DNA from: a virus
Virus record (IMG/VR): IMGVR_UViG_3300028844_006278
Length of the DNA stretch: 64,000 nucleotides
Direction: 5' to 3' (one strand)
Shown: one piece after another, positions 24,079-34,548 of the stretch
How the letters are laid out: every line of letters starts with the position of its first letter
Position numbering within the stretch: position 1 is the first letter of the stretch
Program-made: the position numbers and the translations under genes
Notes under the pieces: generated by a model
The model's database searches: none
The model's input: only the letters and a program-made list of their open reading frames with translations
Told to the model about the DNA's origin: nothing

Positions 24079-26415
24079 TTAGTGGGGGTCGCATTCGTCG
24101 TAGTCGAATAGAGATACCCCTGCCTGAGCAGTAGCGTCCTCTCCGTTCCCGCTCTGGTCCGGAACATCAGTAAGGGTAGACTGGTTGCCGACATAGTGGA
24201 ACAGTGCTCCGGCTGGGGGCTCCTTAAAGCATCCTGCCGCGTAGAAGTCGGACGGCGTCTCGTATGAGTCGTACATACATATGTGATCCAAATACCCGTC
24301 GACAGTGCCCATGCGTCCGGCGGAAGTAAGTACCGATATCCCGGTACCGGGCCAGCTAGTGCTGGTAGACTCGGAGTACATACTAGTCCCGTCGCTCAGC
24401 CATAGCTGCGCTGTGTTAGTAGAGGACTGGTATCTCCACACAAGCTGCCTCCAGACATTATCGTCCCACCCCAATGTAGAAGAGTACATACGGACATCGC
24501 CTACACTCGGATGGTGGCTGATGATTCTAATCTTAGTGCCGTCGCGGTCCCACCATACGTTCTGGATTGATCCGGACGACGGGCGATAGAACGCTGTGAA
24601 GCTGGCGGTGGAGTCCCATCGAAACCGGCCCGCTATTGTAAGATCTGTGAATGTGCTCCAGGTCGGTGTAGCATCCATTGTAATATACCCGGACCCTATG
24701 TCAAACGCCTGAAGTTGGGGAGCCGGGGCGGCGGCTACTAGGCTCGAAATCTCGTAGAGGCTAGACACATCGACCGGGCTAGACACATCCACAGGGCTCG
24801 ACACATCGACCGGGCTAGACACATCGACCGGGCTAGACACATCGACCGGGCTCGATACATCGACCGGGCTCGATACATCGACCGGGCTCGAAATCTCGTA
24901 GAGGCTCGAAATCTCGTAGAGGCTCGAAATCTCGTATAGGCTAGACACATCTACAGGGCTAGACACATCGACCGGGCTCGATACATCCACAGGGCTCGAC
25001 ACATCTACAGGGCTAGACACATCTACAGGGCTAGACACATCTACAGGGCTCGACACATCGACCGGGCTCGAAATCTCGTATAGGCTCGAAATCTCGTATA
25101 GGCTCGAAATCTCGTATAGGCTCGAAATCTCGTAGAGGCTAGACACATCTACAGGGCTAGACACATCGACAGGGCTAGACACATCGACCGGGCTCGATAC
25201 ATCGACCGGGCTCGACACATCTACAGGGCTCGAAATCTCGTATAGGCTCGAAATCTCGTAGAGGCTCGACACATCTACAGGGCTAGACACATCGACCGGG
25301 CTCGAAATCTCGTATAGGCTCGACACATCGACCGGGCTAGACACATCCACAGGGCTCGAAATCTCGTATAGGCTCGAAATCTCGTATAGGCTAGACACAT
25401 CTACAGGGCTCGACACATCTACAGGGCTAGACACATCTACAGGGCTCGACACATCCACAGGGCTCGACACATCCACAGGGCTCGACACATCCACAGGGCT
25501 CGACACATCCACAGGGCTAGACACATCTACAGGGCTAGACACATCTACAGGGCTAGACACATCTACAGGGCTCGACACATCTACAGGGCTAGACACATCT
25601 ACAGGGCTCGACACATCTACAGGGCTAGACACATCGACAGGGCTCGACACATCGACAGGGCTCGATACATCCACCGGGCTAGATACATCCACCGGGCTAG
25701 AAATCTCGTAGAGGCTCGAAATCTCGTATAGGCTCGAAATCTCGTATAGGCTAGACACATCTACAGGGCTAGACACATCTACAGGGCTCGACACATCTAC
25801 AGTGCTAGATACATCGACCGGGCTCGAAATCTCGTAGAGGCTCGAAATCTCGTAGAGGCTAGACACATCGACCGGGCTAGACACATCCACAGGGCTCGAC
25901 ACATCTACAGGGCTAGACACATCTACAGGGCTCGACACATCCACAGGGCTCGACACATCTACAGGGCTAGACACATCCACAGGGCTCGACACATCCACAG
26001 GGCTAGACACATCTACAGGGCTCGACACATCGACCGGGCTAGACACATCCACAGGGCTCGACACATCTACAGGGCTCGACACATCTACAGGGCTCGATAC
26101 ATCCTCAGCAAATGGATTATCGGAAGATGCAAATCTATCAGATAAGCTAGACATCTCCTGAGCCGTAAGAGATATTGCATAAGAGCTGCTGGAAGGAGTG
26201 AATGCAACAGAGACGCCCTGGGCGGCGATGGAAGATGCGCCGAGTAGCGAACTAGAGGAGCTGGTACCTAGGCAGTCCGCGCACGTTTCGTACGTAGGCA
26301 CGCCCCCCGCTTCAGGCGAGTTGGGGACAGTAGTCACGTATCTGGCAAACGAGAAGCACTTCCCGTCTATCTTGACTACTTCTCCGGCAAACTCAGGTAA
26401 TATACGATGGTCCAT
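24079..26415 (-). CDS. Mucin-like fibre/adhesin: N-terminal Cys module, ~75 Ser-rich hexapeptide repeats, C-terminal LamG-like lectin domain
   Basis: GEVVKIDGKCF...YETCADC; (SSPVDV)/(SSLYEI)n; DLTIAGRF, DNVWRQLVWRY, DGYLDHICMYD, DQSGNGEDAT. Confidence 0.7.
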   Translation of the reverse strand: MDHRILPEFAGEVVKIDGKCFSFARYVTTVPNSPEAGGVPTYETCADCLGTSSSSSLLGASSIAAQGVSVAFTPSSSSYAISLTAQEMSSLSDRFASSDNPFAEDVSSPVDVSSPVDVSSPVDVSSPVDVSSPVDVSSPVDVSSPVDVSSPVDVSSPVDVSSPVDVSSPVDVSSPVDVSSPVDVSSLYEISSLYEISSPVDVSSTVDVSSPVDVSSPVDVSSLYEISSLYEISSLYEISSPVDVSSPVDVSSPVDVSSPVDVSSPVDVSSPVDVSSPVDVSSPVDVSSPVDVSSPVDVSSPVDVSSPVDVSSPVDVSSPVDVSSPVDVSSPVDVSSPVDVSSLYEISSLYEISSPVDVSSPVDVSSLYEISSPVDVSSPVDVSSLYEISSLYEISSPVDVSSPVDVSSPVDVSSPVDVSSPVDVSSLYEISSLYEISSLYEISSLYEISSPVDVSSPVDVSSPVDVSSPVDVSSPVDVSSPVDVSSPVDVSSLYEISSLYEISSLYEISSPVDVSSPVDVSSPVDVSSPVDVSSPVDVSSPVDVSSPVDVSSLYEISSLVAAAPAPQLQAFDIGSGYITMDATPTWSTFTDLTIAGRFRWDSTASFTAFYRPSSGSIQNVWWDRDGTKIRIISHHPSVGDVRMYSSTLGWDDNVWRQLVWRYQSSTNTAQLWLSDGTSMYSESTSTSWPGTGISVLTSAGRMGTVDGYLDHICMYDSYETPSDFYAAGCFKEPPAGALFHYVGNQSTLTDVPDQSGNGEDATAQAGVSLFDYDECDPH
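24740..26103 (-). repeat. 18-bp coding tandem array (~75 units, two unit types)
   Basis: Units such as gggctagacacatctaca and aggctcgaaatctcgtat with synonymous variants; no spacers. Confidence 0.97.
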
Positions 26416-26428
26416 AACGTCCTTCTGG

Positions 26429-28261
26429 TTACTCTAGCGTAAGGGTCTCGCCGTCTTCTGTTATGAAGTTCTCCCCGGTCTCGAGAACTAACCCGAATTC
26501 TTCCGCAGATGACGAGGACGGTGACGTATCTAATACAGCTCCTACACAATCTAAGCAATCGAAGTACGGTCCGAGGACATTAATGGGAGGAGAGAGGAAG
26601 TCGAATACCACGTCGCAATACGGACTGGATGATCCCTCCTCTAGCATCGTAAAGCACGCGCTGCTGCTTACATCGAAATGAACTTCAAAAGTCTCGCCCG
26701 GAATAAACTGGTCTATGTAGTAGGAAGGAATGCACCACACTTCCTCGTCTTGGCAGTGAAGGGCCAGAGTCATATCAGGCATCGCCGCATCGTCGTTGAT
26801 AAGAGTCACTCGGCCGGATAGGTCTAAGACAGAACTGTCAGAGGAGGACGAGTTCTCTTCTATTGGCCTCTGGTCTACAAGAGCCTGCTGTCCGTCATCC
26901 TTCGCAGACAGCAGAGGATCCAATACATCGTCCGGTAGGCCACTAGCGCAGTCGAAGCACCCGTCGAATACATCATCCAAGGTCGGGGAAGACAGCACAC
27001 GCGTGCTACCTGAGGAGCAGGATGGAAGAGAGTCCGACGGGCCTGTATGTACGTCGATGAATGAATAGCAGACTCCGTCAATCTTAAGGACATCCCCGTC
27101 TACGAACCCGGCTACGCTAGAAGAGGCTCCGTTAAGCAGGTCATCCATACATGCCCACGTACAGCTGTAAATAGGCACGGTAGGCATTCCATATACCTCG
27201 TGTATGCCTCGGACGTCTTCGTAGGACTTAACAAGCCCGCCACCGCCCCACGATTTATCCAGCCGACCTGCTCCGTATATGTGCGAACGATTAACGACTG
27301 TGGGAAACAATACGGACTTATAGGAATGAGTAGCGTATACCGGAGTGCCCTTAAAGGATTCGTTGTGCTTAAATCCTAGAGAATGTCCTATCTCATGCGC
27401 AGCTACATAAGCTATGCTATATGAGTTAGTATCCCCTCTGTGCTTGTTAGAAGAGTCCTTAGACCAAGGACTGCCTCTATCAAAATGTAAGACAGTCCCT
27501 CCAGCTCCGTTCCCTATCTTAGCGTACCTAAGCGGATAGGAGGCGTGAGCTAGTGCGGACAGATCCTCCATGCCGAACCGGAAATCTCCTCTAGTTAGTG
27601 AGGGATTGCTATTCTCGTCACCCGTGTACGTGAACTCCACCGTAAGTTGGTTGGAGAACCCGAACGATGGGCTATATGCGAACTCAAACGCAGCCTTCCA
27701 TTGGTCGAACGCGGATTGTATCTCTGCGAGAAATTCAGCCTTCGTTACTGGATTTCCTGTAGTGCTGCGCTCTGCGCTAACATCCGCAACCGGGTCCTCT
27801 TTTAGCTCGAAGATAGGGGCATGCCACGGAGAGCCTCTGGTATATTTCTGAAGTGTCCACGTGAAGGAAATAGTCTGGGGACCCTCCGCTAGGTCATCTA
27901 CAGCATCCTTCAGCTCGTACCAGTATCCGCCCTCTTCACCGGTCCAGGCACCTTCGTACGTATAGGGCTCTGTTGCCACAAAGCAGTTATCGAGCCGCGC
28001 CCACTCCAAGCATTCGTACAAGCTGATAGATACAGAGCTCGAGCTTACAACCAATGTACTAGGTGTCGTGGAGCTAGGGACCTCAGAGACTGCTATAGCC
28101 GAACAATCTTCGCACGTATCATACCTAGATGCATCGGAGTCTAGGATATCCGGCTCTCCTGACGAGGCGTACCCGTCAAAGATATAGCATACGCCGTCTA
28201 TCTTCACCACATCTCCGGAGTAATCCGGGAGTAAGTATTCTCTGTCTCCGTATATAGGCAT
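26429..28261 (-). CDS. Matrixin-like (M10, metzincin) zinc metalloprotease flanked by three Cys modules
   Basis: AFDQW...DFRFG...LAHASYP...HFD...W, VAAHEIGHSLGFKH (27365-27397), SVLFP at the Met-turn; C-terminal LETGENFITEDGETLTLE. Confidence 0.85.
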   Translation of the reverse strand: MPIYGDREYLLPDYSGDVVKIDGVCYIFDGYASSGEPDILDSDASRYDTCEDCSAIAVSEVPSSTTPSTLVVSSSSVSISLYECLEWARLDNCFVATEPYTYEGAWTGEEGGYWYELKDAVDDLAEGPQTISFTWTLQKYTRGSPWHAPIFELKEDPVADVSAERSTTGNPVTKAEFLAEIQSAFDQWKAAFEFAYSPSFGFSNQLTVEFTYTGDENSNPSLTRGDFRFGMEDLSALAHASYPLRYAKIGNGAGGTVLHFDRGSPWSKDSSNKHRGDTNSYSIAYVAAHEIGHSLGFKHNESFKGTPVYATHSYKSVLFPTVVNRSHIYGAGRLDKSWGGGGLVKSYEDVRGIHEVYGMPTVPIYSCTWACMDDLLNGASSSVAGFVDGDVLKIDGVCYSFIDVHTGPSDSLPSCSSGSTRVLSSPTLDDVFDGCFDCASGLPDDVLDPLLSAKDDGQQALVDQRPIEENSSSSDSSVLDLSGRVTLINDDAAMPDMTLALHCQDEEVWCIPSYYIDQFIPGETFEVHFDVSSSACFTMLEEGSSSPYCDVVFDFLSPPINVLGPYFDCLDCVGAVLDTSPSSSSAEEFGLVLETGENFITEDGETLTLE

Positions 28262-31937: not shown

Positions 31938-32237
31938 CTAGGGTAAGATAAACATATCGCCGTCTCCTAGAATATACCCAGGATCTGTGATATTAACCAC
32001 TTCGATGTTCGATAACGACGACCGCTGGAGCCGGACGTTAGTCTTTATATGATCGATAGCCACAGGCAGTACCCGCTCCATTGCTACCTTAGATCGGAAA
32101 AGCATTGCGATATTGTCTGACCGGTACAGGTCTCCCAGGTCTGCTGAGAGCGGGTGAACCATGAGGTCAGTAGGTGATGCGATGGATATCAGGACCTTTG
32201 TCGGATCTATGTCTGGGAGCTCTGGATCTTCATTCAT
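31938..32237 (-). CDS. Hypothetical protein, paralog of the C-terminal half of 34162-34548
   Basis: IASPTDL..HP...LYR...MLFRS...HIKTNV aligns with IASYADI..YP...FFR...LIFQS...QIKNTV. Confidence 0.65.
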   Translation of the reverse strand: MNEDPELPDIDPTKVLISIASPTDLMVHPLSADLGDLYRSDNIAMLFRSKVAMERVLPVAIDHIKTNVRLQRSSLSNIEVVNITDPGYILGDGDMFILP

Positions 32238-32299: not shown

Positions 32300-34147
32300 T
32301 CACGTATGGACAATCACGCACTGTATGTCCCCTCGCTGCCTAGTAACATACAAGAGTTCGCCCCAGATCTCTCCGGATATGTGGATCTTATCCCCGGCAG
32401 CGAGTTGCCAAACCGGTCCGGATAGGGGGAAGTACTCGGCCGCTCTAGTCGGATCCAATGCCTGGGCAGGGCCGTCTGAGCCTACAGGTGGCCGAAAGAT
32501 CTGGTAGGGCAGGGCATTAAGTATATGCTCATCACCATCCGATAATCGGAGGCCCAGCTTATAATACTCGCTTATGTTCGCTCGAGAGGTGCCGCTCACT
32601 CGTTTAACCCCGACGGCAGGCCGGCCGGACTCTGATAGGTAGGACGAGACTACCCTATGGCCCTCCTGCAGATCTTCGCACGAATATGGACCACCTAGAG
32701 GAGCAGGCACTGTGCAGACAGTAGTCCCCGGAAGTAGCGGTATGTCCTCAGACTCCGGTATAGCGATTGTAGGGCCTTCATACCGAATGTCCGTGTACGT
32801 CGATAGATTATGCACTAGGAATCCGTTGGCGAATAAGGTTAGGTAATTTGCGACGTCCCATACAGCCACAGACTCTTCAGGTCCTTGGTGCTCATCTATA
32901 CTTAAGATAGGATGCCATGCCCTATCCTTAGAGTACAACTCATCCTCTGCTCGTAGAGGCAGTATCTCCGATAGATATGGGTACTCCGCTGTGGCCTTGG
33001 CTGCATCTATGGCCTTCCAAGCTTCCTCTCCGGGAGCGGATCTAGCATATACGGGCTGAGTGTCTGAGATCTCGAGAGTACCTCCGGATAATGTCCGGAT
33101 CTGCCAGTACGCAAGCACGGATGATTTACAGGTACCTCTAATGGGCTGGAAATCTAGAGCGCCGTCGTACTCTGAGTATGAGAATACAGTATCTCCAGAG
33201 GCTAGATCCGATATAGGAACAACTCCCCGATCGCCGGTTAGTACGGTAGTAGAGCGGGATACAAGGGATCCCTTATTGTGTAAGAGCACCCCATCTGCGA
33301 AGTAGTTCCTATTGTCCTCTACCGCCCATAAATTATATACCTGCTTCTGCCCGGGATATTCCGATACAGAGGATATCTGATCCCACTCTCCACTCTTTGT
33401 TAGGACAAAGTCCCCTGCCGACATCTTCAGCAGTCGTCGTAGATACGGGTGCGATTTACGGGATCGGGAGGGGCAGTAGGATGCCCACCCTATCCCCGAT
33501 CCGGGCTTACGGACATACACTGGCTGGGAGGTGGTGATCCCCAGAGACGTCCCAGACTGTAGATTCAGCGTGATGTACCGGTCAACTAGCGGAGCATCTA
33601 TGCCGAGGACTCGTTTACCTTCGACCTGCTCGCTTACCTCGTTGTAGGAGAGCACAATGTCGCCTACCTGCACATCTTCGACTTTTATCTCCCCTCCTCC
33701 TGGAACTGATATTAAGGTGCTGGCCACTACGCATCCTCCTGGAATATCGTCCGAGGACGAGGACCCCGCCCCAACCTGCAACGTGCACAGATCCTGCATA
33801 AATACATGGGAGGCATTACGTACATACGGCATAGATATCTGCACAGGCGCGTCGAGCGTTACCCCTCGTACAGAGGATACGACAATATCTCCGTCTTCGC
33901 TGCGGAGAACGGCGCCCTCTACCAGTCCTCGATCCTTCTGGATAAAGCCAGAGGTGTTCTCAGCAGAGAAGAACTTGGTAGACGCTGAGAATACGTGGAT
34001 GTCATTTATTACGACAAATTCACGTACTGTTGTCTGAACTGCTTTGAATACCTTCCTCGTCTCAATATCTAGCTCCGGGGACAGCGTCGCTATCTCCATA
34101 CCCCTCTTCCAGGTCGGTAAAGCATCAAGCACGTCTTGATCCGTCAT
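32300..34147 (-). CDS. Tandem Hint (intein-like/BIL) domain protein
   Basis: aa139-291 CVVASTLI...VEDVQVGDIVLS...VYNL...NYFADGVLLHN; aa~295-447 ending LFANGFLVHN; degenerate copies at aa~10-125 and ~470-615. Confidence 0.88.
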   Translation of the reverse strand: MTDQDVLDALPTWKRGMEIATLSPELDIETRKVFKAVQTTVREFVVINDIHVFSASTKFFSAENTSGFIQKDRGLVEGAVLRSEDGDIVVSSVRGVTLDAPVQISMPYVRNASHVFMQDLCTLQVGAGSSSSDDIPGGCVVASTLISVPGGGEIKVEDVQVGDIVLSYNEVSEQVEGKRVLGIDAPLVDRYITLNLQSGTSLGITTSQPVYVRKPGSGIGWASYCPSRSRKSHPYLRRLLKMSAGDFVLTKSGEWDQISSVSEYPGQKQVYNLWAVEDNRNYFADGVLLHNKGSLVSRSTTVLTGDRGVVPISDLASGDTVFSYSEYDGALDFQPIRGTCKSSVLAYWQIRTLSGGTLEISDTQPVYARSAPGEEAWKAIDAAKATAEYPYLSEILPLRAEDELYSKDRAWHPILSIDEHQGPEESVAVWDVANYLTLFANGFLVHNLSTYTDIRYEGPTIAIPESEDIPLLPGTTVCTVPAPLGGPYSCEDLQEGHRVVSSYLSESGRPAVGVKRVSGTSRANISEYYKLGLRLSDGDEHILNALPYQIFRPPVGSDGPAQALDPTRAAEYFPLSGPVWQLAAGDKIHISGEIWGELLYVTRQRGDIQCVIVHT

Positions 34148-34161
34148 AATAGTATGCTCCT

Positions 34162-34548
34162 TTAGCAGTCGTTAACTATTACTTCTACAGCCTCTTCGCC
34201 GTTAAGTCGAACCAGATCCTCTACTGTATTTTTAATCTGCCCTTCTATGAGATCCCACGTATCTGAGAGGTGCGGGAGACTCTGGAAGATGAGATCTACG
34301 TAATACTTACGGAAGAACGGAGAATCCTCGCCGGGATCATTCTCTGGATAGTCGGCTATATCGGCATAGGACGCTATGTGTACGAAGAGGTCTGCGAGTA
34401 CATCATAGGAAGGAACGGAGGGAAGTCTCTGGTACACGAAGACCGTCGGCGGAAGGTTATCGGAAGTCTCTGAGACCCAGACACGCATCCTATGTCGACT
34501 ATCCTCCTCTAGTGTCACCCTCCTTGAGATCTGTATGTAGCTGCTCAT
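34162..34548 (-). CDS. Hypothetical (probably virion) protein
   Basis: 128 aa in operon; halves paralogous to two downstream genes. Confidence 0.75.
   Translation of the reverse strand: MSSYIQISRRVTLEEDSRHRMRVWVSETSDNLPPTVFVYQRLPSVPSYDVLADLFVHIASYADIADYPENDPGEDSPFFRKYYVDLIFQSLPHLSDTWDLIEGQIKNTVEDLVRLNGEEAVEVIVNDC

Follow-up and report, generated by a model that had tools for sequence, protein, structure and literature searches.

Hint domains are known as parts of larger proteins: they occur as inteins in enzymes, as the Hedgehog processing domain, as pretoxin modules, and as bacterial intein-like (BIL) domains positioned between ubiquitin-like domains. The A-type BIL domains were reportedly described by Amitai in 2003 and by Dassa in 2004. 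BIL2 of Tetrahymena thermophila BUBL1 joins the C-terminal Gly of its N-terminal flank to the epsilon-amine of a Lys residue, forming an isopeptide bond (PMC8616854). The present analysis concerns a protein of four tandem Hint-derived units (P0001), encoded on the minus strand of a 64,000-nucleotide window of IMG/VR virus record IMGVR_UViG_3300028844_006278. The window is part of this record, which represents a complete 164,893-bp virus with direct terminal repeats. Judged from its sequence, P0001 belongs, in a worn-down form, to a widespread phage protein family whose members are composed of tandem, putatively self-cutting domains. The gene and its parts are located as follows (aa, amino acid positions in P0001).

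32300..34147, minus strand: open reading frame of the four-Hint protein P0001, 615 codons plus TGA, confirmed by translation and codon check
33734..34099, minus strand: unit 1, aa 17-138 with a folded core at about aa 33-123, a degenerate N-terminal Hint "cap"
33275..33733, minus strand: unit 2, aa 139-291, an A-type BIL-like Hint domain by family profile and structure match
33266..33274, minus strand: three-residue linker K292-G-S between units 2 and 3
32807..33265, minus strand: unit 3, aa 295-447, a Hint domain by BLASTP to unit 2 and family profile
32738..32806, minus strand: linker between units 3 and 4, aa 448-470, 28% identical to the orthologue, with a predicted local distance difference test (pLDDT) score below 50
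32303..32737, minus strand: unit 4, aa 471-615, a putative degenerate, C-terminally shortened Hint domain by hhalign and BLASTP

The TGA stop codon (32300-32302) directly follows the C terminus ...IQCVIVHT, and a strong Shine-Dalgarno motif, AGGAG (34157-34161), is positioned 9 nt before the ATG (34145-34147). The first 16 residues of the protein are conserved in two orthologous lineages. Outside the Hint units, P0001 contains just residues 1 to 32, the KGS linker (residues 292 to 294), and the linker of residues 448 to 470. The units are about 153 aa long and carry no homing endonuclease, in agreement with an earlier reading made from the sequence alone. Pfam returned only subthreshold matches to Intein_splicing, Hint, Hint_2, and PT-HINT (PF07591). 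Pfam and NCBIfam searches detected no toxin domain in P0001, and the protein ends with unit 4.

To assign the units, a family hidden Markov model (HMM) was built from 230 units of other proteins, with P0001 and its orthologues left out. This model matched unit 2 with an E value of 3e-47 and unit 3 with an E value of 9e-25. BLASTP alignment of unit 2 with unit 3 (E=4e-23, 29% identity) extended over 152 residues without a gap, which places L295 of unit 3 opposite C139 of unit 2. The AlphaFold models of both units were confident (pLDDT of about 85 to 95). The top PDB fold matches of these models were BIL2 of BUBL1, the Clostridium thermocellum BIL domain, mini-inteins, and the Hedgehog processing domain, with template modeling (TM) scores of 0.85 to 0.90 for units 2 and 3 against BIL2 and 2LWY in Foldseek. 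Comparison of unit 2 with BIL2 (6y75) gave a sequence E value of 5e-7 and a Foldseek E value of 2.5e-10 at a TM score of 0.88. Units 2 and 3 are certainly Hint domains, and the best PDB matches, BIL2 and the C. thermocellum BIL domain, bear out the proposed kinship with BIL and PT-HINT domains rather than with splicing inteins.

Unit 4 aligned to the family profile with an hhalign probability of 96% (E=2.5e-9), covering Hint columns 9 to 135 of 164 only, and a BLASTP search with unit 2 matched residues 448 to 615 (E=2e-5). Unit 4 lacks some 16 residues at its block F/G end, in the region of the block F hairpin, and the protein terminates in V-H-T (I-H-T in the orthologue), where a Hint domain would end in V-H-N. 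Since the AlphaFold model of residues 449 to 615 is of low confidence, the fold of unit 4 is read from the sequence profile alone. These matches support the assignment of unit 4 as a probable Hint-derived unit shortened at its C terminus. BLASTP with unit 2 gave no match within residues 1 to 138. The C-terminal half of unit 1 aligned by hhalign to the end of the family profile (E=5e-6), and unit 1 modeled alone with AlphaFold had a core pLDDT of 70 to 90. The best PDB match of this model was BIL2 (Foldseek E=5e-4; VIA Z 7.7 over 112 residues with a root mean square deviation of 2.9), and in an exhaustive comparison with 48,161 PDB chains, the top 31 rows were all Hint folds. Comparison with PT-HINT clusters of the ESM Atlas gave TM scores of 0.59 to 0.64. 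The homologous cap in the 1285-aa relative P0004 still ends in ILVHN|GGGGG|C. Unit 1 is therefore predicted, from its model, to adopt a Hint fold. No further relatives emerged when unit 1 or unit 4 was used by itself in word-index searches.

Taken together, P0001 consists of four units, all of which appear to be Hint derived, without a non-Hint passenger. The sequence-only reading had proposed this layout of four Hint-derived units and no extein; it is sustained by the family HMM for units 2 and 3, by hhalign for unit 4, and by the model-based fold matches for unit 1. The same fold matches of unit 1 and the profile match of unit 4 speak against the alternative that these two units are ordinary passengers.

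Inspection of the catalytic positions revealed that the Cys1 nucleophile is present in unit 2 alone (C139; TGC, 33731-33733), where it is preceded by G138, so that the residue at position -1 is Gly. Block B of unit 2 reads T205-T-S-Q208-P, with Gln in place of His, and the unit ends in H290-N291 with K292 at position +1. Unit 3 has Leu at position 1 (L295), S361-D-T-Q364-P as block B, H446-N447 at its end, and L448 at position +1. Unit 1 lacks Cys1 and the block B His and has LQ at the His-Asn position, and its PGG end abuts Cys139. Unit 4 lacks Cys1 and the TxxH motif and ends in HT. The complete junction pair GG|C139 and HN|K292 is found in unit 2 only. All residues that had been named before (G138|C139, TTSQP, HN|K292, L295, SDTQP, and HN|L448), including the replacement of the block B His by Gln in both intact-looking units (Q208 and Q364), proved correct by translation and codon check. 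The description of units 1 and 4 as degenerate holds; it has to be extended by the shortening of unit 4 at its block F/G end.

With respect to A-type BIL domains, the terminal His-Asn is present in units 2 and 3 and no Cys, Ser, or Thr occurs at position +1 (K292 and L448), as expected for this type. The block B Thr-x-x-His is not conserved: unit 2 has TTSQ, unit 3 has SDTQ, and units 1 and 4 have no counterpart. With respect to canonical inteins, P0001 has Lys or Leu at position +1, its block F lacks Cys in both unit 2 and unit 3, and there is no insertion at a conserved site in a host protein. Unit 3, with Leu or Phe (in orthologues) at position 1, no +1 nucleophile, and no block F Cys, fits no known splicing class. 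The class 3 (WCT) and class 2 intein routes were considered for this unit and ruled out because it has neither a block F Cys nor a +1 nucleophile.

An exhaustive search of 1.84 billion representatives revealed 1,885 relatives, and the best 152 of these were included in a family census. Two to eight Hint units were found in 106 of the 152, and 17 were at least 80% Hint. The linkers between units are mostly 0 to 5 residues long (KG, KC, KGG, or K) and start with K or R as the norm. Among complete family units, 253 of 278 have Cys1, the block B His, and the terminal His-Asn all present. At the block B position, 311 of 314 units have His and only 1 has Gln. Position +1, scored in about 295 units, is Lys in 190, Arg in 29, and Ser in 11, and is almost never a nucleophile. 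About 15 relatives terminate exactly at HNK (among them P0040, P0043, P0044, P0046, P0054, P0060, P0063, and P0098). Since many relatives end one residue past the Hint domain, at His-Asn-Lys, this Lys behaves like a residue of the domain itself. In the ESM Atlas, the nearest clusters comprise Hint-only Uroviricota proteins and have up to 156 members. The counts of tandem units and the Hint-only viral clusters indicate that a layout of tandem Hint domains and nothing else recurs in uncultured phages. In uncultured phages, passenger-less tandem arrays are the normal architecture of the subfamily of P0001. The absence of a passenger, noted in the sequence-only reading, is thus upheld for P0001, but the layout, which that reading had called unusual, is not unique: 106 of the 152 relatives are multiunit proteins and 17 are at least 80% Hint.

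One relative, P0053, carries ubiquitin after a BIL domain and is hence a BUBL-type protein. Three relatives (P0004, P0007, and P0008 at loci L004, L005, and L009) have a Pro-rich collagen-like tail (GPPGPQGPPG), which closes with a conserved C-x-E-E-C-D/Q-x-L/F-P motif. The flanks of the units in P0001 are other Hint units, and no intein-less homologue was found. In cultured phages, tblastn with P0001 retrieved only the helicase mini-inteins of Vibrio phages, with 25 to 30% identity to unit 2, and megablast with 7 kb gave no match. IMG/VR pattern scans with A1 and with P0006, an array described below, returned nothing. Our search of the literature on tandem and phage Hint and BIL domains yielded ordinary inteins and general BIL reviews, and no published description of passenger-less Hint or BIL arrays was found.

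The block B His is essential or important for the N-S acyl shift in most inteins (PMC6333167). [quoted passage not shown] Because this position is His in nearly all family units and Gln here, the Gln residues of P0001 mark a departure from the active state. This argues that the thioester step may be weakened or lost in P0001. The protein is an eroded derivative of arrays in which nearly all units are catalytically complete.

Two close lineages, each about 53% identical to P0001, were found: P0002, together with a near-identical sequence from a second sample (L010), and P0005, which is known only as a 319-aa fragment. The gene order at the P0002 locus is the same as that at the P0001 locus. The called start of P0002 (L001:9953-10000) is probably 16 codons too far downstream, as an upstream in-frame MTIDDISNAWPTWRRG matches the N terminus of P0001; the L010 copy has an open reading frame that begins at this proposed MTIDDISNAWPTWRRG start. 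The block B Gln is common to P0001 and P0002, while P0005 keeps His. All orthologues conserve the GG|C and HN|K frame of unit 2. In unit 3, position 1 is not conserved, being Leu in P0001 and Phe in the orthologues; the +1 residue of this unit also varies between lineages (Leu or Lys). A metagenome scan retrieved just the near-identical copy of P0002 and so added no diversity for judging the conservation of C139, Q208, and His-Asn.

A more distant phage encodes P0006, a 663-aa protein of four units, all with Cys1, TxxH, and His-Asn, and with flanks of just 14 and 27 residues. Its gene occupies the same place as that of P0001: genes of 81 and 128 aa precede it, and matrixin-bearing proteins follow. 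The P0002 locus has the same arrangement; both array genes come after genes of 81 to 89 aa and 128 aa. The best partner of P0001 unit 4 in the P0006 array is its last unit. A tblastn search with P0006 revealed no match in about 50,000 deposited phage genomes. P0004, encoded close to a terminase gene on a phage contig of a different kind, shares the degenerate N-terminal cap, which is followed by seven intact units and the collagen-like tail. Its orthologous relative P0007 has the same tail and is 57% identical to P0004 over the shared part, with four units versus seven, which indicates that the number of units is plastic.

The P0001 gene is open and full length in both fully known lineages (P0001 and P0002/L010), at 53% identity. 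The nonsynonymous substitution rate (dN) against the orthologue is 0.28 to 0.61 per unit, and the synonymous rate (dS) is saturated, so that dN/dS is not computable. On the grounds of the open frame, the saturated dS, these dN values, and the strong Shine-Dalgarno motif, the gene is counted as maintained.

Analysis of the genomic localization revealed two small genes that directly flank the P0001 gene.

34162..34548, minus strand: conserved 128-aa gene just upstream, which adjoins the Hint-array gene in all three syntenic lineages
31938..32237, minus strand: 99-aa gene just downstream, which carries an IASxxDL...FRS... module

By eye, the module of the 99-aa protein (IASxxDL...P...FR...LF.S) is shared with the 128-aa protein and with a 354-aa neighbor of the intact array. 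This Ser-rich/Cys-rich 354-aa protein (L006:8852-9916), encoded beside the P0006 gene, holds the shared module in the middle of its chain. BLASTP of the 128-aa against the 99-aa protein detected no similarity, and the shared motif was seen by eye alone. A split Hint domain, with the end of unit 4 supplied by a small neighbor, was considered and dropped, as the family HMM found nothing in the 89-, 99-, and 128-aa neighbors or their orthologues; the presence of the 99-aa-type module beside a fully intact array weakens this idea further.

The neighbors of P0001 include Cys-module, Ser-rich, and matrixin proteins. The same strand block encodes a baseplate wedge homologue (phrog_6, E=1e-8; Baseplate_J), for which tblastn against cultured phages gave no match. 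This neighborhood suggests that the P0001 gene belongs to a tail/fiber-type module, and P0001 is probably virion associated. Two larger genes were also annotated in the region. A 610-aa protein (26429-28261, minus strand) matches matrixin (Peptidase_M10, E=3e-13), and matrixin proteins also follow the Hint gene at locus L006. A 778-aa protein (24079-26415, minus strand) matches the DUF1388 short repeat (E=2e-24) and, weakly, a PHROG "structural protein" family. Elsewhere in the same phage, a large open reading frame (L003; G000:C1:94849-98064) contains an ordinary intein (Intein_splicing, E=6e-10; LAGLIDADG_3, E=3.5e-5). One genome thus holds both a canonical and a BIL-type Hint domain.

From the domain identities, residue states, census, synteny, and open frame described above, we infer a loss of activity, a virion association, and a structural role, and we give about an even chance to P0001 being a largely non-catalytic four-domain protein of the tail/fiber module in which unit 2 would retain no more than residual processing. 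Its ancestor would have been a self-processing BIL array like the intact one that a related phage still carries at this locus. The chemistry would since have largely decayed, with the loss of Cys1 from units 1, 3, and 4, the exchange of His for Gln in units 2 and 3, and the loss of the block F/G end of unit 4. Given this decay, P0001 is most likely produced, and put to use for the most part, as an uncleaved chain, whose four compact beta-domains would serve as a structural or binding component of the tail/fiber module. Slow residual processing might at most occur at Gly138|Cys139 and Asn291|Lys292, possibly with an Asn-driven cut at Asn447|Leu448. The match to AXH, a non-catalytic module described below, may be regarded as a precedent for non-catalytic use of a Hint-like fold. 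Among the outcomes that the sequence-only reading had listed, the evidence favors this mostly structural one, in which processing would be residual at most.

Several observations weigh against a mainly structural P0001. The N and C termini of a Hint domain are adjacent, an awkward geometry for a purely structural shaft. Unit 2 keeps GG|C139, T205, H290-N291, and K292 in the three known lineages. The activity of some natural inteins without the block B His means that Gln208 is no proof of inactivity. His-Asn is retained in unit 3, which is unexpected if nothing needs Asn cyclization, with just two sequences covering this position. Finally, the link to the virion comes from the gene neighborhood alone, and most neighbors belong to no recognizable family.

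The conserved frame of unit 2 leads to the strongest competing explanation, that unit 2 is still an active BIL domain, which we regard as rather unlikely. A thioester would form at Gly138-Cys139, Asn291 would cyclize, and the Gly-Gly end of unit 1 would be passed to an amine. Two acceptors are conceivable: Lys292 itself, through its alpha- or epsilon-amine, in which case unit 2 would be excised by BIL-type "splicing without a nucleophile," and a lysine in some other protein of the phage or host, by analogy with BUBL BIL2 and its ubiquitin-like domains. Unit 1 would be the cargo. Consistent with such a transfer, the closest solved relative, BIL2, makes a Gly-Lys epsilon isopeptide bond (PMC8616854), the GG|C and HN|K frame is present in all orthologues, P0004 has GGGGG|C, and the predominance of Lys and Arg at position +1, together with the many proteins that end at HNK, points to a family-wide role for this Lys. 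The idea of a transfer from Gly138, raised in the sequence-only reading, therefore keeps real support by analogy with BUBL BIL2 and in the conserved GG|C...HN|K frame. Set against it are the block B Gln, at a position that is His in almost the entire family, and the small Gly at position -1, which gives no known compensation. Moreover, unit 1 appears to be a Hint relic, neither ubiquitin-like nor other recognizable cargo, and no acceptor is known.

The retained Asn residues could also act by themselves. If the thioester chemistry is dead, cuts at N291|K292 and N447|L448 would release units 1-2, unit 3, and unit 4 from a polyprotein. In both full-length lineages, units 2 and 3 have kept His-Asn although unit 3 has no Cys1, which agrees with this explanation, as does the finding that C-terminal cleavage is separable from the N-terminal steps in inteins and A-type BIL domains (PMC7765530 and PMC7664689). 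We nevertheless consider it improbable: this conservation comes from two or three sequences only and may be structural, as His-Asn is situated in the terminal beta-strand, the +1 residue of unit 3 varies between Leu and Lys, and the separated modules would have no evident use.

A broader conjecture, which we hold with a similarly low degree of belief, is that passenger-less BIL arrays in general are a thioester-based maturation or covalent-coupling device of phage tail/fiber proteins. Each unit would activate the preceding Gly, Ser, or Cys, and the near-invariant +1 Lys would resolve the thioester, so that the chain would be rejoined, branched, or coupled to another virion or host surface protein. 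P0001 would then keep one working junction (GG|C139...HN|K292), which might attach or rejoin the N-terminal cap. A functionless remnant, that is, a decaying pile of BIL units acting as self-removing, copy-number-variable cassettes, could account for the different unit numbers of P0007 (four) and P0004 (seven) and for the eroding catalytic residues of P0001, but is very unlikely, as the frame is open in every lineage found at 53% identity despite saturated dS, the position is kept in diverged phages, one of which has four intact units, the dN of all four units, degenerate ones included, is far below saturation, and the ribosome-binding site is strong.

The new points of this analysis are the whole-protein Hint array and the presence of an intact and an eroded array at one locus. 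Uncultured phages keep genes that encode little or nothing but tandem Hint domains, with spacers of 0 to 5 residues and a conserved His-Asn-Lys end. The pair of intact P0006 and eroded P0001 at the same locus represents a natural experiment on whether the thioester chemistry or the fold itself is what matters. If the chemistry matters, the arrays would be compact ATP-independent protein-coupling modules, useful to protein engineering. If it does not, they would be a second case, beside AXH, of the Hint fold being reused for plain binding or structure.

Comparison with known systems assigns the units of P0001 to the A-type BIL group, as judged by their motifs and profile matches. The features of A-type BIL domains seen in the family census are those described in reviews (PMC7765530 and PMC7664689). 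In both A-type BIL domains and the family of P0001, the Hint domain is about 140 to 155 aa long, contains no endonuclease, has Cys1, TxxH, and a terminal His-Asn, and is followed by no +1 nucleophile; the proteins that carry it are non-conserved ones, not essential enzymes. The C. thermocellum BIL domain (PDB 2LWY) matches the family profile with an E value of 6e-15 and the model in Foldseek with an E value of 5.5e-7 (TM score of 0.86). Unlike A-type BIL domains, the four units of P0001 make up the whole protein, Cys1 is present in one unit, and the block B His is present in none.

PT-HINT domains (PF07591; Streptomyces UmbC, PDB 8W20) are kin in sequence and fold (family profile, E=3e-15), and that of UmbC ranks with BIL2 and the C. 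thermocellum BIL domain among the closest solved sequences; unlike PT-HINT in polymorphic toxins, P0001 has neither a following toxin domain nor a preceding secretion or delivery domain. The canonical mini-inteins (Ssp DnaB, gp41-1, and the helicase inteins of Vibrio phages) have the same fold with blocks A, B, F, and G. In contrast to them, P0001 lacks a Cys, Ser, or Thr at position +1, and there is no conserved host protein that it would restore. The AXH domain of ataxin-1/HBP1, a non-catalytic protein-binding module, matches the family profile (A4) with an E value of 1e-7 over profile positions 5 to 112, and Pfam AXH recurs as a weak match on proteins of the Hint-array family; AXH differs in being eukaryotic and nuclear, and it corresponds to no more of the Hint profile than its N-terminal two-thirds.

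Among solved structures, BIL2 of T. thermophila BUBL1 is the closest (PDB 6Y75/6TMM; sequence E=5e-7, profile E=6e-19, TM score of 0.88). BUBL genes, like the P0001 gene, encode several BIL units per chain, and each BUBL unit is preceded by Gly-Gly. No ubiquitin-like domain occurs between the units of P0001, where the spacers are KGS and 23 poorly conserved residues. In BUBL proteins, ubiquitin-like passengers are positioned between the units and are conjugated by them, whereas in P0001 the spacers of 3 and 23 residues leave Hint-derived unit next to Hint-derived unit.

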